From Candidatus Saccharimonadota bacterium (GTDB lineage: Bacteria; Patescibacteriota; Saccharimonadia; Saccharimonadales; JACDBH01): a stretch of 64,000 nt of DNA. Below are positions 2,566 to 64,000 of the stretch, piece by piece; the first letter of the stretch is position 1, and each line of letters opens with the position of its first letter. The notes under the pieces were generated by a model, which had not been told where the DNA came from, searched no databases, and was given only the letters and a program-made list of their open reading frames with translations. The DNA lies in contig JAQGGW010000004.1 of the NCBI GenBank assembly GCA_028289135.1, positions 758-64,757 on the forward strand. The letters are read 5' to 3'. Both the position numbers and the translations under genes were made by a program.

Positions 2566-4221
2566 CTAAAAATGATCTCTAACGTGGGAGAAGCTGTAGT
2601 CCCAAGTAGCGTTGGCCTTTTTGTGCGGGTTAAAGATGTGGTTTGGGTCAAAAATAACTTTGGTTTTTTTAAACAGCTCAACAATTTCTTTGCCGTACAT
2701 TTCTTCTAGCCATGGGCCGCGGACCAAGCCGTCGTTGTGCTCGCCGCTTAAGGAGCCCTTATACTTCAAAACCAGTTCATTAACTTCGCGCATGCTTGGC
2801 TGCAGCTTTTCGCGCTCGTCTTTTTCTTCTAGTTTCATGAGGGGGATAATGTGGAAATTGCCATCGCCCATGTGGCCGGCAATCGTCGCGAGCAATTTAT
2901 ATTTCTTGATAATAACGCGGAGCTCTGGCAAAAACTGAGGCAAATATTCGGGGTTGATCACAAAGTCGTCAATGTATGGCGCGGTATGTTTGTCCTTGAC
3001 CTTGCTCCGGAGCAACTGGAAGCTTGAGCGGCGCATAATCTGGAATTTGCGCTGTTTTTGCTCGGTGTCGTCGTTTTCAAACAAACATTCATGTTTAAAC
3101 TCTTTCATGTCGGCGCGCAAGGCACTGACTTTTTGGCTAACTTCTTCAGGGGTGGCACCGGTAAACTCAGCCAGCAGAACCATCTTGGGAATACCGCGGA
3201 AAAGCAGCAGCGCGTCGGGAATAAGCTGGAAGGCAAGCTTAATGGTCTCTTTCCAGCCGATTAATTTGTGAAAAGAGAAAAACAGCTTAATGCTTAAAAT
3301 CAGCGTGTAGTTATCAAAGCCCTCAAATGTTGCCGGCTTGTGCGTCATGACTTTATTAATTAGGCTTCCAAGGTCATCTGTACTTTTAAGAAAAATAACC
3401 AAGCTGCCTGAGTGCGGGGTCGACGGCACCAAACGGAAGTTAATATCGGTCGTAAACCCAAGCGTGCCCTGGGCGCCGATGATAATCTGAGTCATGTCAA
3501 AAATGCCGGTTTCGCGGTCCCAAACATCCCACAATTTATAGCCGGTGGAGTTTTTACTCACGTGCGGTTTGGCGGCCTTGATTTTGTCATAATTTGCTTC
3601 AATCAGTTTGTAAAGTTCCTTATACAAATTTCCCTCGTAGTCATTTTGGGCGATTTTTGCGTCCAGGCCGGCTTTATTAAGCGGCTTGACGCTATATTCG
3701 TTGCCATCAGCAAACACCACTTTTAGCTCATTTACAAACTTCTCGGTCTTGCCAAATTCCAAAGACTTTTCGCCGCCAGAGTTGTTGTTAACCATACCGC
3801 CAACCGTACAGAGGTCACGTGAAGCCGGGAAGGGAGGCAGCAGAGCGTGCTGCTTCAGTGTTTCGACTTCAAAATCTCGGTAAAACACACCAGGTTGAAC
3901 CTGGGCGGATTGTGATGAAACAGAGGTGATTTTAGTAAAGTGCTTATTAAAGTCGGCAATGATTGAGTCGTTGATGGCACCACCAGACATATCGGTCCCT
4001 GCGCTGCGGGCAGTTACGCTCAAATTTGGGCTGTTGGCGCGCTCTGCATTAATAGTTTTTATAAGTACTTTAACATCGTCAGTGTCAGTAGGGGAGACAA
4101 TCAACTCTGGGCGAAGTTCAAACAACGAAGCGTCGTGGCTATAAAAATCCTTGGCCGTTGCCGAGTCATCTGTTTCACCTTTAAAACCAGCCGCTTTAAG
4201 CGCAGCAGTAAAATTATCCAT
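2566..4221 (-). CDS. FAD-binding oxidoreductase (GlcD / D-lactate dehydrogenase-like)
   Basis: 551 aa. The N-terminal FAD-binding PCMH-type region contains VTARSAGTDMSGGAI. The C-terminal region GSLSGEHNDGLVRGPW is typical of FAD-linked oxidases. Confidence 0.8.
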   Translation of the reverse strand: MDNFTAALKAAGFKGETDDSATAKDFYSHDASLFELRPELIVSPTDTDDVKVLIKTINAERANSPNLSVTARSAGTDMSGGAINDSIIADFNKHFTKITSVSSQSAQVQPGVFYRDFEVETLKQHALLPPFPASRDLCTVGGMVNNNSGGEKSLEFGKTEKFVNELKVVFADGNEYSVKPLNKAGLDAKIAQNDYEGNLYKELYKLIEANYDKIKAAKPHVSKNSTGYKLWDVWDRETGIFDMTQIIIGAQGTLGFTTDINFRLVPSTPHSGSLVIFLKSTDDLGSLINKVMTHKPATFEGFDNYTLILSIKLFFSFHKLIGWKETIKLAFQLIPDALLLFRGIPKMVLLAEFTGATPEEVSQKVSALRADMKEFKHECLFENDDTEQKQRKFQIMRRSSFQLLRSKVKDKHTAPYIDDFVINPEYLPQFLPELRVIIKKYKLLATIAGHMGDGNFHIIPLMKLEEKDEREKLQPSMREVNELVLKYKGSLSGEHNDGLVRGPWLEEMYGKEIVELFKKTKVIFDPNHIFNPHKKANATWDYSFSHVRDHF

Positions 4222-4460
4222 TACCCTTAAGCTTACCTGTAATTAACCCTTTAAGCAAGATTTAAGATTGAGTAAAGCAATACTCAAAACCTCGAGGAAA
4301 TGAATCTTAGGAGAAAGATCTGGCTATGCCAGTCTTTTTCACGAATGGAATGAACTGTAACCCTGCTAGCAAAGACTTCTAATAAAGTTGCGTTTTATCT
4401 TGGGGTCCCCGCCAAACCTGTTTGGTGGGGTAATTCTTATGCTTTTTGGTTAATATTTTG

Positions 4461-4474: not shown

Positions 4475-5668
4475 ATGAAGCAAAAACATGTACTCATAGT
4501 GGGCGGCGGCTTTGGCGGCGTCAAGGCAGCGCTTGACCTGGCGGCGCACGAAGAACACTTTAAAATTACCCTTTTATCCGACACAGACGCGTTTAGCTAC
4601 CACCCAACGCTCTACCACACGGCCACTGGCGGCAGCCGCGAAGTCTCAGACATTCCGCTGAAAGAAATCCTGGGCAATAAAAACGTCGAGATAATTTTGG
4701 GGCACGCGGACAAGCTAAACCGCGAAAACAAGACCATCCACACCGAAGATGGCCAAAAACTCAGCTATGACATTTTAATTTTGGCGCTTGGTGCCGTTAC
4801 CAACTACTTTGGTATTAAGGGCATGCAGGAATATTCCTACGGTATTAAATCAATCCAGGAAGCCGAAGAACTAAAAGCGCACCTCCACAAACAACTGATC
4901 GAAGACAAAAAGCCTGACCTAAACTACATCATCATCGGCGGCGGACCAACCGGCGTTGAACTTGCTGGCGCGCTGCCAGGTTACGTAAAGAGGATTATGG
5001 CCCAACATGGATTGCCGGACACCAAGCTCCACATTGACCTTGTAGAAGCCGCTCCGCATCTAATGCCTCGAATGCCAAAGTCTGTGTCTAAAGCCTTTGA
5101 GCGCCAACTGCGTTCACTTGGCATCAAGCTCTACCTCGGCACCCCCGTCCAGGCCGAAACCGCCAACACCATCCTCATGAACGGCAAATACGTCCGCAGC
5201 CACACCGTTGTCTGGACGGCCGGCATTGCCAACAACCCATTTTTTGAAGCCAACGGTTTTATTGTCGCCAAAAACCACAAAGTCCAGGTCGACAAACTGA
5301 TGCAGGCTTGGCCGGGCATTTTTGTCATTGGTGACAATGCCGACACGCAGTACAGCGGCATGGCGCAGACAGCACTCTATGACGCCCATTTTGTAGCCGA
5401 AAACCTAATCCGCCACGCCGCAGGCGAGCGCCCATATGCCTACAAGCCTAAAAAACCGATTTATGTAACACCTGCCGGGCCGCACTGGGCATCGGTTGTC
5501 TGGGGACCGGTACACCTTTATGGCTGGTTGGGCTGGGCAATGCGCCAAGCCGCCGACTGGATTGGCTATAAAGACCTTGAGCCATGGTGGCGCGCTACTG
5601 AGCTGCTGCTGGCCGGAGCCGACCACGAAGACAACTGCCCAATCTGTGCCGCAAACGCCGCCAAATAA
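4475..5668 (+). CDS. ndh: type II NADH dehydrogenase (NDH-2), FAD-dependent pyridine nucleotide-disulfide oxidoreductase
   Basis: Two dinucleotide-binding folds, HVLIVGGGFGGV and IIIGGGPTGVELAG, in a 397-aa protein. Confidence 0.82.
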   Translation: MKQKHVLIVGGGFGGVKAALDLAAHEEHFKITLLSDTDAFSYHPTLYHTATGGSREVSDIPLKEILGNKNVEIILGHADKLNRENKTIHTEDGQKLSYDILILALGAVTNYFGIKGMQEYSYGIKSIQEAEELKAHLHKQLIEDKKPDLNYIIIGGGPTGVELAGALPGYVKRIMAQHGLPDTKLHIDLVEAAPHLMPRMPKSVSKAFERQLRSLGIKLYLGTPVQAETANTILMNGKYVRSHTVVWTAGIANNPFFEANGFIVAKNHKVQVDKLMQAWPGIFVIGDNADTQYSGMAQTALYDAHFVAENLIRHAAGERPYAYKPKKPIYVTPAGPHWASVVWGPVHLYGWLGWAMRQAADWIGYKDLEPWWRATELLLAGADHEDNCPICAANAAK

Positions 5669-6312: not shown

Positions 6313-7299
6313 TTACAAGATGAACATCGCATCGCCAAAAGAATAGAAGCGGTAGTTTTCTTTAACAGCATGCTCGTAGATCTTATGCAATTCTTCCACC
6401 GAACCTAAAAAGGCGCTCACCAGCATCAGCAGTGTACTTTTTGGCAAATGAAAATTAGTAATCAGCGAGGCGACAGCTTTAAATTCATAGCCGGGCGTAA
6501 TGAATATGGCTGTGGAGCCTTCTTCTTCGGCAAATGGCCGCTGTGCGCTCTCTAGAACCCGTACAGTCGTCGTACCGACCGCAACCGTGTGTATGGCGGC
6601 ATTCAGCTTGGCCGCGACCTCTGATGTAACAGAGTAGTGTTCTTCGTGCATAATGTGGTCTTTGATCTCATCTGTTTTTACAGGGGCGAAGGTGCCCATC
6701 CCAACGTGCAGGGTAACCTCGGCAAAGTCGTGGGTTTTTTTAATATTTGTTAAAAGCTCAGGGGTAAAGTGGAGCCCGGCAGTGGGCGCTGCCTTGCTGC
6801 CAAGCGGATCGGCATAGACGGTTTGGTATTCTTCGGCCAAAGACTCGTCCTGGGCAATGTAGGGTGGTAGAGGTGTTAGGCGGTGCGGGTCAAAACTTTG
6901 GTCGTCTAGCGTGCGGTCAAGACGGATGGTGCGGATGCCGTCTTCGGCAATGGCGTCAACCGTAAACTTAAAACCTTCAATAATCACTTCGCCAAGGCCG
7001 AATTTTCTGCCAGGGCGAACAAGCGCCGTAATGGTGGTTGGGTTAATGGTTTCCAGCACAAATATCTCTACTTTACCAAACTGCATGCGGCATTTTTCGA
7101 CACGGCTGTTATTTACAACCAGTGTTGATTTGGCAGGCAAATATTTTTCTAGATTGTAAAAATAGTCATCGGTAATTGTCTTGGTTTTGCGGTCATATAC
7201 TAGCAGCCGGGCATGGTCGCGCGGGCTAGCCGGCGTCTGGGCAATCAGGCGCTCAGGCAGCTCAAAATCAAAGTCTCTCAAAGTATAATTCTTAGGCAT
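6313..7299 (-). CDS. queA: S-adenosylmethionine:tRNA ribosyltransferase-isomerase
   Basis: MPKNYTLRDFDFELPERLIAQTP...HFTPELL...HVGMGTF is canonical QueA. The start is set at Met58 of track ORF 6313..7470, because the longer form overlaps the divergent helicase gene. Confidence 0.9.
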   Translation of the reverse strand: MPKNYTLRDFDFELPERLIAQTPASPRDHARLLVYDRKTKTITDDYFYNLEKYLPAKSTLVVNNSRVEKCRMQFGKVEIFVLETINPTTITALVRPGRKFGLGEVIIEGFKFTVDAIAEDGIRTIRLDRTLDDQSFDPHRLTPLPPYIAQDESLAEEYQTVYADPLGSKAAPTAGLHFTPELLTNIKKTHDFAEVTLHVGMGTFAPVKTDEIKDHIMHEEHYSVTSEVAAKLNAAIHTVAVGTTTVRVLESAQRPFAEEEGSTAIFITPGYEFKAVASLITNFHLPKSTLLMLVSAFLGSVEELHKIYEHAVKENYRFYSFGDAMFIL

Positions 7300-7321: not shown

Positions 7322-10300
7322 ATGGGTGAATTTTCAAAAGAATACGACAAACTAAATGCCGAACAGAAAAAAGCCGTCGATGCCACCGAGGGTGCGGTGC
7401 TGGTTATTGCCGGCCCAGGGACAGGCAAAACCCAGCTGCTTTCGCTGCGCGTAGCAAACATTTTGGACAAGTCGGACTCCCAAGCTCAAAACATTTTGTG
7501 CCTGACTTTTACCAACAAAGCGTCCAACAACATGCAGCTGCGTCTAAGCCGTTTGGTTGGCCCATTGGCGCACAAAGTCATGATCAATACCTTCCACAGC
7601 TTTGCCGCCGAAGTTATGAATATGTATCCTGAATACTTTTGGCAGGGCGCCCGGCTAATTAATGTACCGACAGCCGTGCAGTACGAAATTATTACCGACA
7701 TATTGTCGGCCTTGCCGTTAGACAACCCGCTAGCCTTAAAATTTGCGGGACAATTTACCAGCACCAAAGACGTTTTGGATGGGCTAAAACTGGCCAAGGA
7801 AGCAGGCTTAACACCCGATAAATTGCGGGCGTTAATTACCCATAATATTAGCTATATCGACGAGGTCGAAGACTTGCTGGTAGAAATCTGCAGTGAAAGA
7901 CTGAGCTATAAAAAGCTCGACGAACTTGCCATGCAGATCGAGGAGCTGCCCGAGCAGCATACCGACGAAGTTACCCGCCCGCTTGTGGCACTTTCAACAG
8001 TTATTTTAGAATCTTTTGAAGCCGCGCACACAGCCGACGACGGCACCGACAGAACCAAAAACACCAGCGCCTGGAAAGCACGCTGGATCAAATCGGTAGA
8101 AGGCCAAAAAGGCATGTTTGAAGAGCGCAAACGCAATGCCTGGTGGTTGGCGCTGGCAGACGTATACGAAAGCTACCGGAGCGCATTGCACGAACGCGGA
8201 TACTATGACTTTTCGGACATGATTATTGAAGTGATTTCGCAGCTGGAACAAAACCCAGACATGTTGGCAGACATCCAGGAGCGCTTTCATTACGTTTTGA
8301 TTGACGAATTCCAAGACACCAATGCCGCGCAGCTGCGCCTAGCGCACCTTGTGGCCGACAGCTACGCCAGCGCCGGCAACCCAAACATTATGGCGGTGGG
8401 TGACGACGACCAGTCGATCTACAAATTTAACGGCGCCGAACTTAGCAACATGATGGGCTTTACGCGCAGCTATCCGCAGGCAAAAACTTTTGTTTTAACC
8501 GACAATTACCGCTCCAGCCAAGACGTTTTGGATATTTCGATGCAGGTGATTGCACAGGCCAGCGAACGCGTGACCACAAAGCACGCCGCCATAACCAAGG
8601 AGCTTGTTGCCAAGAACCCTCCGTCCAAAAAAAGCAGCATCCAGCATCTTTCATTCCCAACTAAAGAGCACCAATATTACGAAATTGCCAAGCAAATCAG
8701 CAAGGCGCAAAAAGAGGGAAGTGTGGCAGTGTTGGCCCGCAGCCATGACAGCCTGCGCGCCGTGGCGCACACGCTAAATCTGCAAAACGTACCAGTTCGT
8801 TATGAACAGCAGCAAAGCGTTTTAGAGCAGCCAATTGTGAAGCAAATTAGATTAATCGCCGAAATTATTATCGCCATAGCGGACGGCAACGAAAACCTTG
8901 TTAACACATTTATCCCAGAACTTTTAACTTATGAGGCGTGGAACATTAAGCCCTATACATTGTGGGAGCTGGCCATTGGCAACCGCGGCAAGGCGCACTG
9001 GCTTAAAACCCTGACCGACCACCCTGACGAGCATTTGCAGACAATCGGTAACTGGCTATTGTGGCTAGCTGGCAAGGCCAAAACAGAACCGCTGTGCAGG
9101 GTGCTGGAATTTATAATTGGGCTTAGCGCATCCGAACATTTAACAAGCCCGCTTAGACGATTTTATCTGGAAGCGGACGCTGTTGATACGCCGTATCTTG
9201 CCAGCATTTCAGCCGTGCGAAAGCTTACCGAAATGGCGCAGGAATTTAGCAGCCACGGATCGGCCACAGTGCAGGACTTTATACGCCTGCTGCACGTTAG
9301 CATTAACAATAACCAAACCATTACCGACCAGTCTTTGTTTGTAACCGCTGCCAATGCCGTTGAGCTCCTAACGATCCACAAGGCCAAGGGGCTTGAGTTT
9401 GACGCGGTGTTTATCGTGGATGCCATGGAGTCAAATTGGAAGCCTTCTGCGCGCGGGCGTAAGGCACCTTCCAACTTGCCGCTCAGGCCAAACGGTGATG
9501 ATTATGACGATTACGTGCGGCTGATGTTTGTGGCCATGACACGTGCCAAGCGCGATATTACAATTGCCAGCTACTATACGACCGGCAGCGGGGACGAAGC
9601 GGTGGCGTCATCTATTATCCGTGACATTATTCCAGCAACAATACTGGATTATAACGAAGCCAATGATGCTGCAAAAGTTTTGGAAACAACGTTAACATGG
9701 CCGCGGCTAGAAGGATCAGAAGAAAAAGCATTACTGGGCGAAATATTAGAAAATTATACCCTGAGCCCGTCAGCATTTTTGGACTTTTTGGATGTTGCCA
9801 AAGGCGGCCCGCAGTATTTTTTGGAAAAGTATTTACTTCGTTTGCCAGAAGCGCAGTCTGTGCCGGCGGCGTTTGGTAGCTCTATCCACACTGCACTAGA
9901 ACGTGCTCAGCAAATGGTGCTGGATGACAACTTTGAGCTTGGCGCCGTGTTGTCCGCTTACAAAGCAGCACTGCTTGAACAAGGCATGAGCAACAACGAC
10001 TTTGAACGCTACTTGGACCACGGCAAGAAAATTATTAGCCAGCTATTTGAAAAGTACGACCTTGATCTGCAAAAAACTGGACAGCCAGAAGTTAGCCTGC
10101 GCGCGCGTTTTGACAACGTTACTATCGCCGGCAAATTAGACCGCGCAGACACAAGCGGCACCGAGCTGTTAATTACCGATTACAAGACAGGCAAGCCGTT
10201 AACTTCACTACAGACCAAAAGCCAAGCACTTCAGCAAAAAGCTTGGCGGCACCGAACGCAGCTTGAGCTATATACATTTATGGCAAAAGAATCGGGTCAC

Positions 10301-57762: not shown

Positions 57763-57765
57763 TGT

Positions 57766-57793
57766 TTGACATTTAGAAATTTAGTGCTAAAGT
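57766..57793 (+). promoter_or_regulatory. sigma70-like promoter TTGACA-N16-TAAAGT
   Basis: TTGACAtttagaaatttagtgcTAAAGT read directly. The ATG at 57801 follows the -10 by 7 nt. Confidence 0.45.
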
Positions 57794-57800
57794 ATAAATC

Positions 57801-57890
57801 ATGTTATTTGTAAACATAACCAGCACCGATAAGGCAAAGAAGACCACTCTCACGAGGGGATTCTTTGATTTACACCTAAAGCATAAGTAA
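57801..57890 (+). CDS. 29-codon mini-ORF (MLFVNITSTDKAKKTTLTRGFFDLHLKHK) in a promoter-to-terminator micro-unit; could instead be a small RNA or leader
   Basis: Translated by hand. It has a leaderless-type spacing to the promoter and is followed 25 nt later by an intrinsic terminator. Confidence 0.3.
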   Translation: MLFVNITSTDKAKKTTLTRGFFDLHLKHK

Positions 57891-57915
57891 ACTTTAAACC
57901 AATCAAGACACCAAG

Positions 57916-57941
57916 CCCTTCGTGAAAACGGAGGGTTTTTT
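57916..57941 (+). terminator. intrinsic terminator
   Basis: CCCTTCG tgaaaa CGGAGGG followed by TTTTTT. The stem is 7 bp including one G-U pair. Confidence 0.65.
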
Positions 57942-57990
57942 AATTTAAGTAAATTTTAGCGGCCTTGAGCCAACAAGAAAAGGAAATGAC

Positions 57991-58938
57991 ATGAACACAC
58001 CAGATAATACGGGTAGTATCGGAGGCCTCGGAATCCATGAGAGGTCACACAACCGACTCTACCATAACAACGAAATACCTACTGAAGATATTAGTCAGAT
58101 ACACGAAGGCGTCACTCAGCTACAGGCAATGGCATGGGATATCCCAAACATCAGCCGCATTGTCTTGCGGGGAATTATGGGGCAAAGAGCCTTTGACCAG
58201 CTGGTAAATTCAGGACTGGGGCATGATCTTGAAGTACTGGCATCACTTTCGGGTCATGGTCACCCTGGGCAATACCTCTATAGTGTTGCCAGAAACCAAC
58301 CGCACCGACGAACACATGTTCCGGTTGCGGAGATGATTGCCCAAACTAACCAACCCTTACCCGTGCGTGACCAGCAGCACGACATACCGCCAAGCGAAAC
58401 ACTACCCAACGCGGGAGATGTAGATGGAATACTTACGCTGTGGGGAAGCACTTTCAAATGGACAAAAGAGTCTACGGAAACTTTTATACGAGATCTGCAA
58501 CAAAACGCGATTATGAGCCCAGCTGAACGAACTCTATGGTTTTCAGGCCAACGTTGCACCGATGGCCAGCTTGTCAGCGCGGCGATGGCCGAAAGGCTTG
58601 ATATGCCTACCTTCACTGGCCATATTGCTTTGATTGAATCAACCGAATGGCGCACTCACCCAGATTACTTACGAAGAGGGCTAATGGCACAAACACTTCG
58701 AGATATGAATGGAAATATACAGCAAGATTTAGTAGGTCAATACCCGTTTATCTTTGCTGAATGCAACTTTCAAACTCGTGCTGATATTGCTGGGCGCCTA
58801 GCCGGATTTTTCGTTCCAGATCGTAACATCGGCACCCAAACTATCCGTCAAAACGTGGTCGTAGAAGACGGCACCAACCTACCTTCCAACATCTTACGTG
58901 ACTTTACATTTGTAAATGTGCCAGGAAGGGCAATCTAA
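57991..58938 (+). CDS. hypothetical protein with a C-terminal GNAT-like acetyltransferase region (315 aa)
   Basis: IALIESTEWRTHPDYLRRGLMAQTL resembles GNAT motif A (R-R-G-x-x). The N-terminal 150 aa or so are unassigned. AGGA lies 7 nt upstream of the ATG. Confidence 0.5.
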   Translation: MNTPDNTGSIGGLGIHERSHNRLYHNNEIPTEDISQIHEGVTQLQAMAWDIPNISRIVLRGIMGQRAFDQLVNSGLGHDLEVLASLSGHGHPGQYLYSVARNQPHRRTHVPVAEMIAQTNQPLPVRDQQHDIPPSETLPNAGDVDGILTLWGSTFKWTKESTETFIRDLQQNAIMSPAERTLWFSGQRCTDGQLVSAAMAERLDMPTFTGHIALIESTEWRTHPDYLRRGLMAQTLRDMNGNIQQDLVGQYPFIFAECNFQTRADIAGRLAGFFVPDRNIGTQTIRQNVVVEDGTNLPSNILRDFTFVNVPGRAI

Positions 58939-59898
58939 ATGCGTGCTGTTGAACTGTTCTATGACCCCCGTCACGCCATACATAACCCGGCCTATGAGCT
59001 CTACAATGGCATCCAAACACCATATGCTGAGTGTGCCGATAGACTAGAGGTTATTGCAGAGCATTTGCAGCAATCTGGACGCAAATTAAGGCGCCCACGT
59101 TCTTATGACATAAGTCATGTCCGAGCGCTTCATTCAGCGCCTTACATTAACTTTGTCAGGGAAACATCGGCGCGGCTAAAAAACGGTGAGACACTCATGC
59201 CTAGTAACTTCATCATGGACACATACACGCCAATAACCGGCCGTACATATCAGGCTGCCCGGCAGGCTGTTTCTACCGCGCTTACAGCAGCACACTATGT
59301 TTTGAGTAATCATGACGGCATGGCGTATGCACTATGCCGTCCGCCTGGCCATCATGCCGCGCAAAAACACAGTGGAGGCTACTGTTATTTTAATAACGCG
59401 GCCATCGCAGCAAACTACCTTTCTGGACATGGCAGGATTGCTATCCTGGACATTGACTACCATCACGGCAACGGCACTCAAGAACTATTCTACGACAGGG
59501 ATGATGTGCTATATGTTTCAATCCACGCCGACCCGAGTTTGCAGTTCCCATACATTAGCGGATTTAAAAGTGAAACAGGAGAAGGCCGGGGCAAAGGCTT
59601 TACCAAAAATTACCCACTACCGCTACATACAGGAAACGCCCAGTATTTTCGAACCCTGAGGCGTGCCGTACAAGACGTTCAAAACTTCAACCCTGATTTT
59701 TTGGTAATTTCAGCTGGTTTTGATGCCCATGAAGCCGATCCAATCTGTCGTTTTGACCTAACAACCTCGTGCTATGCAGATATTGGCAGTACCATCAGTG
59801 CTCTTAATCTACCAACAATAATAGTCCAAGAAGGAGGCTACAACCTAAAAACCCTCGGCATACTCGCCGAAACCTTCATTAATTGCCTTGAGAAATAA
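58939..59898 (+). CDS. histone deacetylase-family amidohydrolase (AcuC / acetylpolyamine deacetylase-like)
   Basis: CRPPGHHA, LDIDYHHGNGTQ and EGGY are the Zn-dependent deacetylase motifs. The ATG directly follows the upstream stop (TAAATG). Confidence 0.85.
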   Translation: MRAVELFYDPRHAIHNPAYELYNGIQTPYAECADRLEVIAEHLQQSGRKLRRPRSYDISHVRALHSAPYINFVRETSARLKNGETLMPSNFIMDTYTPITGRTYQAARQAVSTALTAAHYVLSNHDGMAYALCRPPGHHAAQKHSGGYCYFNNAAIAANYLSGHGRIAILDIDYHHGNGTQELFYDRDDVLYVSIHADPSLQFPYISGFKSETGEGRGKGFTKNYPLPLHTGNAQYFRTLRRAVQDVQNFNPDFLVISAGFDAHEADPICRFDLTTSCYADIGSTISALNLPTIIVQEGGYNLKTLGILAETFINCLEK

Positions 59899-59940
59899 AA
59901 AGGTTTAAGAAAGACTGTCTACGAATAAAATTTTCCAACT

Positions 59941-59985
59941 AAAAAGAGTCTGTAGAGGGGGTGGGCACCGCTACAGACTCTTTTT
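59941..59985 (+). terminator. intrinsic terminator (bidirectional-capable)
   Basis: AAAAAGAGTCTGTAG agggggtgggcaccg CTACAGACTCTTTTT, with perfect 15-nt arms that include A and T runs. Confidence 0.7.
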
Positions 59986-59989
59986 AGGC

Positions 59990-60300
59990 TCAAGACAAGC
60001 TTAAGCCAATAAAACACCCTTCAACCCACCTTGAAGGCCTCCCCACACCATCTCTGGGCTTGTGAACGCTCTCGTATTGCGCTCAAAGTCCAGAGAAGGT
60101 GTGGGGCCCACTCGTGGTTGTCCGACATATCCTGGCCATCAAAAAGTGCGAGGGAGGAATGCGGGGTTAAAGGGGTTAGTCCGCTTTAGAACGTTTGCAC
60201 CTCTAAAGGGATGCGTAGCTAGATAAGTGGAGGGTAACAACTTATAAAGCACGTTCTAAAACAGCCTAACGATTTCACTTGGATTGCTCCAAATGAACGT
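59990..60300. ncRNA. unassigned, strongly structured non-coding region (candidate housekeeping or regulatory RNA)
   Basis: There is no ORF of 60 aa or more on either strand across about 500 nt. Hairpin CCTTCAA/TTGAAGG at 60018..60037. A 17-bp helix CCCCACACCATCTCTGG / CCAGAGAAGGTGTGGGG at 60041..60057 with 60090..60106. A long-range bipartite helix GTTAG..TTTAGAACGT / ACGTTCTAAA..CTAAC at 60175..60194 with 60251..60270. Confidence 0.35.
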
Positions 60301-60412
60301 TAAAATAGGGGTATAAGGTACATAAATCCCATAAAGAGACTCACGGATTGCTATTTTAGCAAACTTATGACATTATGTCAATACTTAAATACAAAAGAGG
60401 GTAGTTGTCAAT

Positions 60413-61588: not shown

Positions 61589-61888
61589 TGAAGTTGTGAG
61601 GAAAAATTTCTCAGTTTTGTGTTTGAAACTTGACGGGTACACCTTTGATACAGTAGGGTAAGGAGCTATATGCCAATTCAGGCATGACTTTAACCATAAG
61701 TTTGATAGACTACAGTGTACATGAACGCGTACCAGAATAACTTACTAGGCATAAAATGAATTATTTGCGAGATAAAATTAACAAAGTGCGACAAGAGGTA
61801 GCATTAGCTACATTGCGAAGCAGTTTGTTAATTTTAGCCGAAAATAGTCATTTTAGGGCAGGAAGGATATTCCGGTACGCGTTCTAAT

Positions 61889-64000
61889 ATGACAAAAAAC
61901 CTTGTGATCGTAGAGAGCCCCGCAAAGGCCAAGACAATCGAGAAGTACTTGGGCAAAGACTACACCGTTAAAAGTAGCTTTGGCCACATTCGTGATTTGC
62001 CAAAAAAGGGTCTCAGCATCGACAAGGCCAACAATTTTGAACCAACCTACGAAGTTAGCCCAGAGAAAAAGAAGGTTGTTGCGGAGCTTAAAAAGCTCGC
62101 CAAAGGAGCAGAAGTCTGGCTCGCAACTGATGAAGACCGCGAAGGGGAGGCCATTGCCTGGCACCTTGCTATGGCTCTTGGACTTGATACCAAAAAGACA
62201 AAGCGCATTGTTTTTCACGAAATTACCAAGCCAGCCATCTTGGCCGCAATCGAAAACCCTCGTTTGGTTGATTTGCATCTTGTAGACGCCCAGCAAGCCC
62301 GCCGTGTGCTTGACCGTCTTGTTGGCTACGAACTCTCACCAGTACTCTGGAAAAAGGTCCGCGCTGGATTGTCCGCAGGACGAGTTCAATCTGTTGCCGT
62401 CCGCCTTATTGTGGAGCGCGAACGCGCGATTGCCGCCCACCAGGCCGAAAGCAGCTATAAAATTATCGGCGACTTTTTAAGTAATAAAGAAAGTTTCAGC
62501 GCCGAGCTAAACACCAAGCCAGCTACCATTGAAGAATCCAAAAAGTTCCTAGAAGCCAACATTGGTGCCACCTATACCGTAAAAAGCGTCACCAAAAAGC
62601 CCGGCAGCCGTAACCCAGGCGCGCCGTTTACCACCTCAACACTCCAGCAAGAAGCCGCCCGCCGCCTTGGCTTTACCGTCCGTCAGACCATGTCCGTGGC
62701 CCAGCGCCTGTACGAAAGCGGAAAGATCACTTACATGCGTACCGACAGCACCATCTTGTCTGGCTTGGCAATTAACGCGGCCGAACAATACATCAAGAAA
62801 GAATTTGGCGACAAGTATCACACCTTGCGCCAGTTCAAGACCAAAGATTCCAGCGCCCAAGAAGCCCACGAAGCTATCCGCCCAACCGACTTTACGACCG
62901 AAACCGCCGGCGAAGACTCCCAGCAAGAAAAGCTTTATAAACTCATTTGGCAGCGCGCCCTCTCAAGCCAGATGTCACCAGCCGTTACTGACAAAACAGA
63001 TGTCAATATCACCATTTCCACGCGTCCAGAGGTGTTTGTTGCCAAAGGCGAGATATTAGTCTTTGACGGTTTCCTTCGGGTCTACGGCGGCGGCAAGGAC
63101 GACAGCCTTCTTCCTGACCTTAAAGAGGGTCAAGCCCTCCAGAACGAGCGTATTACAGCCACAGAGACCTTTAGCCGCGCTCCAGCCCGCTACTCGGAAG
63201 CATCACTTGTTAAAGCATTAGAAGAGATGGGAATTGGCCGTCCAAGCACCTACGCGCCGACCATTTCGACCGTCCAGGATAGGGGTTATGTTGAAAAGCA
63301 GGACCTTGAAGGCAATGAACGCGATGTCCGCAGCGCCGTATTAGTAAATGGCACAGTCAAAGAAGACACCGTCAAAGAGCGCTATGGCGCCGACAGAGGC
63401 AAACTGATGCCAACCGCTGTTGCCGAAGTAACTACCGACTTCTTAACCAAATACTTTGGGCCAATTGTAGACTATGACTTTACCGTCAAAGCCGAAAAAG
63501 AGTTCGACGATATTGCAGATGGTAAAACCGCCTGGAACAAGATGATTGCCGAGTTTTATAACAGCGACTTTAAGCCGCTAATTAAGGCATCCGCCGATGT
63601 TACCCGCGAAGAAACCTCACAGTCCCGTACACTCGGCACAGATCCAAAGAGTAAAAAACCAATCATCGTCCGTTTTGGCCGCTACGGCCCTATGCTCCAA
63701 AAGGGTGAGACCTCTGATGAGGAAAAGCCTGCTTTCGCCCCGCTTCCTAAGGAAACAACCATGGATAATGTCACGCTAGAGCAAGCTTTGCCAATGTTTG
63801 ACTTGCCAAAAACCATTGGTGCGCTCGAAGACGGCCGTCCGATTTTGGGCAACATAGGCCGTTTTGGCCCTTATATCCAGGTAGACAAGGTCTATGTGTC
63901 GCTAAAAGAGCATGACCCATTGACCATCACCGAAGAAGAAGCCCGCGAATTATTTGCCGAAAAGCTAGTCCAGATTGCCGAGCGCAACGTTGCCGACTTC
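61889..64000 (+). CDS. topA: DNA topoisomerase I (partial, continues beyond the window)
   Basis: Translated by hand: MTKNLVIVESPAKAKTIEKYLGKDYTVKSSFGHIRDLP...WLATDEDREGEAIAWHL is a Toprim domain. The frame stays open for 704 codons to the window edge, which is why it is absent from the track. Confidence 0.92.
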   Translation, partial: MTKNLVIVESPAKAKTIEKYLGKDYTVKSSFGHIRDLPKKGLSIDKANNFEPTYEVSPEKKKVVAELKKLAKGAEVWLATDEDREGEAIAWHLAMALGLDTKKTKRIVFHEITKPAILAAIENPRLVDLHLVDAQQARRVLDRLVGYELSPVLWKKVRAGLSAGRVQSVAVRLIVERERAIAAHQAESSYKIIGDFLSNKESFSAELNTKPATIEESKKFLEANIGATYTVKSVTKKPGSRNPGAPFTTSTLQQEAARRLGFTVRQTMSVAQRLYESGKITYMRTDSTILSGLAINAAEQYIKKEFGDKYHTLRQFKTKDSSAQEAHEAIRPTDFTTETAGEDSQQEKLYKLIWQRALSSQMSPAVTDKTDVNITISTRPEVFVAKGEILVFDGFLRVYGGGKDDSLLPDLKEGQALQNERITATETFSRAPARYSEASLVKALEEMGIGRPSTYAPTISTVQDRGYVEKQDLEGNERDVRSAVLVNGTVKEDTVKERYGADRGKLMPTAVAEVTTDFLTKYFGPIVDYDFTVKAEKEFDDIADGKTAWNKMIAEFYNSDFKPLIKASADVTREETSQSRTLGTDPKSKKPIIVRFGRYGPMLQKGETSDEEKPAFAPLPKETTMDNVTLEQALPMFDLPKTIGALEDGRPILGNIGRFGPYIQVDKVYVSLKEHDPLTITEEEARELFAEKLVQIAERNVADF

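Follow-up and report, generated by a model that had tools for sequence, protein, structure and literature searches.

A probable new non-coding RNA gene beside dprA in Saccharibacteria, with a terminal hairpin loop that recurs in phages

Results

The stretch analysed here (the window) comprises 64,000 nt of Candidatus Saccharimonadota DNA (contig JAQGGW010000004.1, positions 758 to 64,757 of the forward strand), in which 514 bp separate the end of a deacetylase-family open reading frame (ORF; 59898) from the start of dprA (60413). An earlier note on this DNA had singled out 59990-60300, inside this gap, as an ORF-free and strongly structured region that could encode an RNA of no assigned class. 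The gap was borne out, its longest ORF being of 54 amino acids (aa) and none reaching 60 aa. Our comparison with related genomes suggests that it very probably contains a stand-alone gene on the minus strand for a highly structured non-coding RNA (ncRNA) of about 410 nt, conserved across Saccharimonadia (Saccharibacteria/TM7); this RNA, which matches no described family, would be new. The proposed limits were too narrow and the element spans approximately 59937-60347. Folding of 59990-60410 gave a z-score of -7.6 on the minus strand versus -4.6 on the plus strand, and none of 100 dinucleotide shuffles folded as well.

As relatives we used the 80 best dprA loci of species-representative genomes, all of them from Saccharibacteria or on contigs that bear other names and are apparently mis-binned; the window organism itself is placed in Saccharibacteria by its DprA homologues. 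Approximately 450 nt upstream of dprA aligned at the nucleotide level (nhmmer, blastn) in 77 of the 80 loci and the other three have too little upstream DNA, so that all 77 testable loci carry the RNA gene, in a group where DprA identity is only 47-76%. The conserved DNA corresponds to 59937-60389 of the window, with promoter elements reaching 60381, and its conservation is blocky, with six segments of 15-27 nt that are at least 90% conserved and spacers that differ in length and sequence. In the usual context of the relatives the RNA gene lies between pth, the convergent gene for peptidyl-tRNA hydrolase, and the divergent dprA. Metagenomic loci found by the terminal loop motif alone (described below) and containing the other conserved blocks also have dprA and/or pth adjoining the RNA wherever the flank suffices, which argues that this neighbourhood is not merely an artefact of a collection based on dprA. 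Four contigs of metagenome-assembled genomes (MAGs) filed as Verrucomicrobiia, Pristimantibacillus, Limnocylindrales and Dormiibacterota (L038, L044, L062 and L063) each carry a dprA of the Saccharibacteria type, likely through binning contamination; the RNA is also found in L038, L044 and L062, and L063 has no upstream sequence.

The strand of the functional molecule could be read from its non-canonical pairs. In the stem of the terminal hairpin (P12) each position that departs from Watson-Crick pairing is A:C on the plus strand, that is, G·U on the minus strand, and over the 56 proposed pairs and 59 sequences G·U was counted 195 times on the minus strand versus 23 for A·C. Additionally, in 59 of 71 sequences the 5' hairpin (P1) had its more stable fold on the minus strand. 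Because of these asymmetries, we take the functional molecule to be a minus-strand RNA, transcribed divergently from dprA. A scan of the window against consensus elements returned on this strand TTGACA, an interval of 17 nt and TAAAAT with a TG extension (60381-60353), as well as a terminator-like hairpin. The -35 box TTGACA (60376-60381, minus strand; 11/12 consensus matches) is exact in 70 of 72 relatives, the spacer between -35 and -10 is of 17 nt in 69 of the 72, and the extended -10 element, TGcTAAAAT (60353-60361, minus strand), keeps its TG in 71 of 72 with a -10 of the form TAnAAT. The predicted promoter is thus a near-consensus sigma-70 promoter with a TG-extended -10. The terminal hairpin has an uninterrupted stem of 9-19 bp, followed by a U-rich tail in 63 of 72 relatives. 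From the predicted start (60346-60348) to the U-run after the terminal hairpin, the whole predicted transcript would cover 59937-60347 on the minus strand (about 410 nt), and in relatives its predicted length ranges from 317 to 567 nt (median 404). The earlier proposal of an unassigned structured RNA therefore stood, given its presence in all testable relatives, its compensatory base changes and the lack of a conserved ORF; the plus strand that it implied did not, as both the wobble asymmetry and the promoter and terminator signals point to the minus strand.

The RNA promoter overlaps the region upstream of dprA (60353-60412) and includes the palindrome TTGACATAATGTCA. In most relatives dprA seemingly begins about 12 nt earlier (ATGAAAGTCAA...), with almost no leader and no conserved Shine-Dalgarno (SD) sequence, and transcription of dprA may start inside the RNA promoter or run against it. 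Pairing of the RNA with the SD of dprA was discarded as a candidate, since a GAGGG ribosome-binding site is found in the window alone and the majority of relatives are nearly leaderless.

Base pairs were counted on a gap-free alignment in which the conserved blocks of 59 sequences were joined. Standard pairs occupied 96% of the cells, and 20 pairs had changes on both sides. The covariation score was 0.233 versus 0.097 for shuffled alignments, with none of 500 shuffles reaching 0.233, and sliding the 3' partners by 1-3 columns lowered pairing to 35-54%. The comparison with syntenic regions upstream of dprA, which the earlier note had recommended, thus revealed helices that covary in relatives, and the covarying scaffold appears to be made of P1, P3/P4, P6, P8 and P12. 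From the 5' end, P1 (60321-60345, minus strand, as are all the elements of the RNA given below) is a hairpin whose stem in the window counts 10 bp, including four G·U. It was found in 71 of 71 relatives, with distal sequences that differ and a mean z-score of -3.2 in per-sequence folding, which was used because RNAalifold found no structure on a MAFFT alignment of P1, where the variable stems misalign. J1/2 (60298-60321) is a near-invariant single strand, G(C/U)ACCUUAUAyCCCC(C)AUUyUAAC, as judged from the conservation profile and the alignment, and it is followed by P2 (60274-60297), an optional hairpin that is missing or of another length in many relatives.

The 5' strand of P3/P4, GUUAG-gc-UGUUUUAGAACGU (60251-60270), pairs with ACGUUCUAAAGCGGACUAAC (60175-60194), and corresponds to the bipartite helix GTTAG..TTTAGAACG / CGTTCTAAA..CTAAC around ATAAGT/ACTTAT that had been noticed before and is indeed present. 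Six of its 19 pairs show double changes, 96.7% of its cells are paired, and RNAalifold finds the helix independently. It encloses a junction with the P6 hairpin (60223-60245), whose invariant 11-nt loop UGUUACCCUCC (60229-60239) stands on a stem with a covarying base (AU, UA, GC, CG), and with a variable hairpin region, P5/P7 (60195-60222), that differs in length and sequence among relatives. Within P3/P4, GUUAG (60266-60270) has two candidate partners, CUAAC of P3 (60175-60179) and the conserved (U/C)UAAC that ends J1/2 (60298-60303). The latter pairing would lengthen the base of P2, and both options tolerate just wobble-compatible changes, so an alternative pairing or a switch at GUUAG is possible.

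P8 joins CCCUUUAAC (60166-60174) to GUUGAAGGG (60017-60025). A compensatory change from C:G to G:C occurs in two relatives (L019, L034) and matching changes in five further relatives, among them L016, L029 and L045 (A:U, G:C), and P8 closes the single-sequence minimum-energy fold in nearly all of the relatives shown. Inside it lies a lineage-variable domain with multiple hairpins (60031-60165), which is mostly gaps in the consensus of 73 relatives and whose architecture in the subclade of the window is unlike that of the majority. The 17-bp helix of the earlier note (60043-60059 / 60090-60106) was recovered as one arm of this domain. The 7-bp hairpin that it had placed at 60018-60037 (CCUUCAA/UUGAAGG) is also present; it is confined to the window subclade, approximately 13 of the 73 aligned sequences, and shares bases with the 3' strand of P8, so that it competes with P8. 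Next to P8, GGUGGG (60025-60030) is invariant in 56-59 of 59 sequences. P11 (59987-60007) is an optional hairpin, missing in about one quarter of the relatives and variable elsewhere.

The last element, P12 (59941-59985), is a terminal hairpin and predicted intrinsic terminator, with its stem at 59971-59985 / 59941-59955 and the loop CGGUGCCCACCCCCU at 59956-59970. These letters had been taken for the terminator of the HDAC gene; they are the RNA's own terminal hairpin. Double changes occur in 11 of the 12 stem pairs; nearly every relative has a stem sequence of its own, and complementarity is kept. The loop of 15 nt is unchanged: counted together with its closing G:C pair, it forms a 17-mer that is identical in 67 of 73 relatives, the remaining ones departing from it at a single position. 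The RNA thus presents several invariant, mostly C-rich unpaired segments, namely UAUCCCCCAUUCUAAC, UGUUACCCUCC, CUAACCCC and CGGUGCCCACCCCCU. Two possible pseudoknots involve the terminal loop, GGUGG:CCACC, which is paired in 98% of the cells and never varies, and GYACC of J1/2 with GGUGC, a standard pair in 100% of the cells; both would consist only of invariant bases.

The terminal loop was also found in phages. The loop 15-mer GGTGCCCACCCCCTC gave 87 matches in viral contigs of IMG/VR, in an exact-match search that undercounts loop variants. In 47 of them it caps a perfectly paired stem of 7-18 bp, and in the other 40 the complementary flanks are of just 0-5 bases, which is what chance matches would give. 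The 47 hairpins (among loci L081-L165; for example L087:2870-2884 on the plus strand, L089, L156 and L164) have 44 distinct stems, with all four Watson-Crick pairs at every stem position. On their C-rich strand G·U was counted 31 times versus 3 for A·C, and in 47 of 47 the two bases preceding the searched motif are GC. The loop CGGUGCCCACCCCCU is closed by G:C in these hairpins. As a control, a 15-mer of the P6 loop gave 57 viral matches, none of them in a hairpin. Furthermore, among three phage relatives picked by capsid similarity alone, two have the loop core at the same genome position with small changes (L343:693-768; L344:2052-2132), and the third has an ordinary hairpin there.

The phage hairpins occupy several contexts. 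In eight viral loci an 81-aa ORF ends immediately before the hairpin, which has the portal gene on one side and the scaffold and major-head genes on the other; in six it follows the endolysin gene at a convergent junction; and in about ten it belongs to a compact unit that runs from a -10-like element through a short 5' part and the hairpin to a T-run, resembling a small RNA (sRNA) gene. Several of these units join a CCUCC-containing 5' part to the hairpin. No integrase was seen beside phage hairpins, the neighbours being portal, scaffold, capsid or endolysin genes or nothing. The P8/GGUGGG block was absent within 300 nt upstream of the loop in all viral hairpin loci except L153, and in approximately the 100 nt upstream and the 70 nt downstream of phage hairpins neither GGTGGG nor GGGTGG was found. 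In two further loci, L113 and L114, the hairpin is flanked by two tRNA halves, a 3' half on one side and a 5' half on the other. The reverse complements of these loci (approximately 4160-4330 and 4840-5010, respectively) contain a T arm with CUCCCCGA, the hairpin and then GGGGAGUAGCUCAG..., with complementary acceptor strands. ARAGORN calls no tRNA at these hairpin sites, which could be permuted or intron-containing phage tRNAs.

At the end of the contig L153 (IMGVR_UViG_3300049064_000004), classed as viral, stands a complete RNA gene copy (7941-8380, plus strand), and approximately 1 kb away there is a second hairpin with the same loop and a different stem (6855-6885, minus strand). This copy has no dprA upstream, and its neighbours are RecT, an exonuclease-FtsK fusion, two DNA methylases and a KhpA-like KH protein. 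A KH-domain protein as linked partner of the RNA was considered and dropped as uninformative, the KhpA-like gene occurring in just two of the viral loci examined. L069 (2507-2590 and 1860-1945, minus strand) has a direct repeat of 63 nt, made up of the 3' strand of P8, P11, the 5' arm of P12 and the loop; it ends exactly within the loop at CCCACCCCC and flanks an insertion of 640 bp, in which there is an ORF of 152 aa. In the distal copy the 3' arm is non-complementary, and the arrangement looks like recombination or integration within the loop. Because this repeat flanks an insertion, and alongside the variable interval between pth and the RNA, the 3' end of the RNA looks like an insertion hotspot.

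That interval is an islet of 4-1820 bp with unrelated ORFs in 61 loci of relatives. In the window the islet (57763-59940) is occupied by two genes, one GNAT-like (57991-58938) and the other for the deacetylase (58939-59898), neither of which is found at this place in any of the 80 relatives. Two ORFs without a Pfam match are syntenic with dprA, 61853-62296 (minus strand) in 73 of 80 loci and 62667-63059 (plus strand) in 34 of 80.

Searches for known families were negative. At the gathering score, Rfam 15 found in the window and 20 relatives only three tRNAs, elsewhere in the window. At E ≤ 10, with matches of about 14 bits and above considered, the window region, L013 and L079 gave microRNA-type hairpin noise and one suhB/mmgR match, which is sub-threshold (21 bits versus a gathering score of 41) and covers a generic hairpin and terminator. 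In these three sequences and at this threshold no match was obtained to RNase P RNA, transfer-messenger RNA (tmRNA), 6S RNA or signal recognition particle (SRP) RNA, the classes for which the earlier note had advised such a scan, nor to riboswitches or the OLE, raiA, ROOL, GOLLD and HEARO models. ARAGORN, run on the window and 60 relatives, found no tmRNA. The architecture is multi-domain with separate terminal hairpins and has neither a rod with a bubble, nor a GNRA-capped SRP helix, nor tRNA-like end pairing. A short conserved protein gene, which the note had named as the finding that would overturn an RNA, was not found either: at most 68% of the 73 loci have any given conserved block inside an ORF of one and the same frame, the ORFs there are 6 to 160 aa long, and spacer lengths change freely. 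Look-alikes of group I introns and of CRISPR tracrRNA (CAGACUAA, GUUUUAGAGC) were set aside as coincidence because of their variable positions. Lastly, a literature search that included motif strings found no description of this RNA, and a TM7x transcriptome preprint states that small RNAs have yet to be validated (bioRxiv 10.1101/2022.03.25.485537).

Discussion

We tentatively propose, as a possibility held with low confidence, that the RNA works in trans as a recognition scaffold, that is, as an abundant housekeeping-type RNA or the scaffold of a ribonucleoprotein. Its C-rich loops would be recognition surfaces for a conserved partner, which could be a protein that reads them or a G-rich RNA such as SD-like GGAGG/GAGGGU sites, and the terminal hairpin would constitute a self-contained and portable recognition module. 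In this regard, the presence in phages of the same loop on unrelated stems suggests that a cellular factor reads the loop and that phages mimic or exploit it. The phage copies do not discriminate whether this factor would be a protein, a G-rich RNA, or the RNA's own GGUGG/GYACC segments.

Several points weigh against the RNA gene or against this interpretation of it. The mechanism is drawn from loop composition and the phage copies, and among the hairpin-bearing viral contigs only L153 is tied to the RNA gene by physical linkage. Since phage hairpins keep the same loop without partners in cis, its invariance needs no pseudoknots. The block alignment was hand-anchored on the same sequences, so the control with slid partners favours the proposed structure. 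Furthermore, the synteny with dprA and pth may just mirror conserved gene order, conservation was sampled within the 80 best dprA loci, and promoter, start site and terminator are predictions made from sequence.

An unlikely variant of this mechanism is a trans-acting RNA with multiple seeds, in which the C-rich loops (ACCCUCC, ACCCCCUC, CCCCC) would pair with the SD regions of many mRNAs and repress their translation, like RsaE/RoxS or the anti-SD sRNAs of alpha-proteobacteria. The predicted promoter of its own and the intrinsic terminator agree with this, as do at least four invariant C-rich unpaired segments, the enrichment of GGAG, AGGAG and GAGGGT (7-44 fold) upstream of ATG starts in the window, the complementarity of GAGGGU to the P6 loop (ACCCUC) and the phage units that join a CCUCC-containing 5' part to the hairpin. 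However, invariance spans 15-27 nt around each C-run and the scaffold far exceeds the needs of a seed-type sRNA, GGAG or GAGG is present at only about one quarter of the crude gene starts in the window, and the neighbouring dprA has no conserved SD. Window-wide, GAGGGT is approximately 44-fold enriched at -18 to -4 (4 of 68 ATG starts), and TATACT-like -10 boxes are frequent just upstream of the starts, which suggests that many genes of the window have short leaders or none.

A more specific and rather improbable variant is that the core of the RNA reads hairpins with the CGGUGCCCACCCCCU loop by kissing interactions, through GGUGG:CCACC and GYACC:GGUGC. Its own P12 would dock in cis and phage hairpin RNAs in trans, and the latter would be processed or stabilised, or would block the host RNA. 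In its favour, each of the two invariant partner segments complements one of the loop's adjacent halves, with pairing in 98-100% of the cells, and their sole variable position switches from C:G to U·G only (33 versus 26 sequences); the lack of GGTGGG and GGGTGG near the phage hairpins also fits. On the other hand, neither pairing shows covariation, phage loops that have no cis partners are just as invariant, so that a protein reader fits as well, and L073 has GUUGGG instead of GGUGGG. A broader idea, to which we assign similarly poor odds, is that the RNA forms the core of a Saccharibacteria-specific hairpin-reading machine, on which any RNA with the P12 hairpin could dock in trans, and that phages tag late-operon transcripts, sRNAs and tRNA-linked spacers to recruit or jam the host ribonucleoprotein.

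Other identities for the locus appear far less probable than a new RNA. The universal core of RNase P RNA includes conserved region I (CR-I), GNAANNUCNGNG (GGAAAGUCC in bacteria), and conserved region V (CR-V), ACNNRANNNGNYUA, which together form P4. A diverged RNase P RNA was the lead of the earlier note, and we consider it very improbable. The size of about 400 nt would fit, the RNA appears pseudoknotted, it is present in every relative examined, and strings such as CAAAGTCC do exist on the plus strand. The RNA lies on the minus strand by its wobble asymmetry, though, and these strings are real letters on a strand that is non-functional and are unconserved (AAAGTCC, for one, was seen in just 4 of 73 relatives and only on the plus strand). 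CR-I followed by CR-V was found in 0 of 73 sequences on either strand, and the 5' and 3' ends form the separate hairpins P1 and P12 with no end-to-end P1 pairing. Diverged RNase P RNAs have been reported in Candidate Phyla Radiation (CPR) genomes (PMC8172020), and PGAP annotates just two ncRNAs in a Nanosynbacter genome (PMC8830319). Yet RF00010 still detects the diverged CPR forms (PMC8172020), and in our searches neither RF00010 nor RF00011 gave a match, be it at the gathering score in the window and 20 relatives or at E ≤ 10 in the window region, L013 and L079.

It is also highly improbable that the element acts in cis as a plus-strand 5' leader of dprA, such as a riboswitch or attenuator. 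It does lie directly upstream of dprA in every locus, but the minus strand is favoured by the 195 to 23 ratio of G·U to A·C and by the energies of folding, promoter and terminator are conserved and point away from dprA, no riboswitch model matches, and the first element on the plus strand would be a terminator-like hairpin. Equally remote is conservation at the level of DNA only, as an attachment site, an integration hotspot or a protein-binding palindrome. The 63-nt repeat of L069, which repeats the 3' part of the gene up to the loop around an insertion, and the 4-1820 bp of unrelated ORFs between pth and the 3' end of the RNA are in line with such a role; against it, DNA sites need no compensatory changes with strand-specific tolerance of G·U over five helices and 400 nt, and the phage hairpins lie between structural genes, after endolysin or in sRNA-like units, not beside integrases. 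Lastly, a diverged tmRNA, 6S or SRP RNA would suit a housekeeping-like, strongly promoted stand-alone gene, and a hidden small protein gene could be imagined as well, but both are most improbable given the negative ARAGORN and Rfam searches, the absence of the folds typical of those RNAs and the lack of a conserved reading frame.

Considered as a new RNA, the element has several points in common with described systems. Like OLE, the raiA motif, ROOL and GOLLD, it has a length of several hundred nt, many covarying helices and invariant nucleotides in junctions and loops, and it is a stand-alone gene of one lineage, presumably abundant, whose function is not deducible from sequence. Unlike them, it has no match to their Rfam models at E ≤ 10 in the window region, L013 and L079, has another architecture and is confined to Saccharimonadia as sampled; in addition, we know of no phage-shared module in these classes like the terminal hairpin loop seen here. 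It resembles bacterial type A RNase P RNA in its similar length, its apparent pseudoknots and its occurrence in every genome of the lineage examined, and differs from it in having the look-alike strings on the wrong strand, no conserved CR-I/CR-V (P4), no P1 end pairing and no model match. With RsaE/RoxS of Firmicutes and the alpha-r14/NfeR1-type 'cuckoo' sRNAs it shares a predicted promoter of its own, a Rho-independent terminator and unpaired CCCC/CCUCC loop motifs. These C-rich, anti-SD sRNAs are the best analogy for how the RNA might work, although it is 4-8 times longer, its invariance extends far past the C-runs and there is no homology. Furthermore, like phage-associated tmRNA and tRNA genes it is a conserved RNA gene with its 3' end at a variable islet and an att-like repeat, but it has neither a tRNA-like domain nor a tag ORF. 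Lastly, the finding that phages carry part of a host RNA recalls phage RNA mimicry (pseudo-ToxI); in our case the phage copies share only a loop on unrelated stems and are not duplicated gene ends or antitoxin repeats.

Saccharibacteria have genomes of approximately 1 Mb with very little non-coding DNA. An RNA of about 400 nt that is kept in all lineages sampled, with loops that are invariant while neighbouring proteins drifted to approximately 50% identity, suggests a core function that current annotation has overlooked. Since two relatives can be cultivated and transformed (PMC10633639), deletion of the gene, pull-down and probing of the RNA are feasible. The alignment could seed a covariance model, through which genomes and MAGs of Saccharibacteria would gain an annotated ncRNA gene. 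The loop common to dozens of phages is a direct handle on the partner of the RNA and gives access to the interaction between CPR bacteria and their phages. A hairpin-reading machine, if true, would be an RNA-RNA recognition system of a new kind and, for ultra-small episymbiotic bacteria, a new axis of conflict between phage and host.

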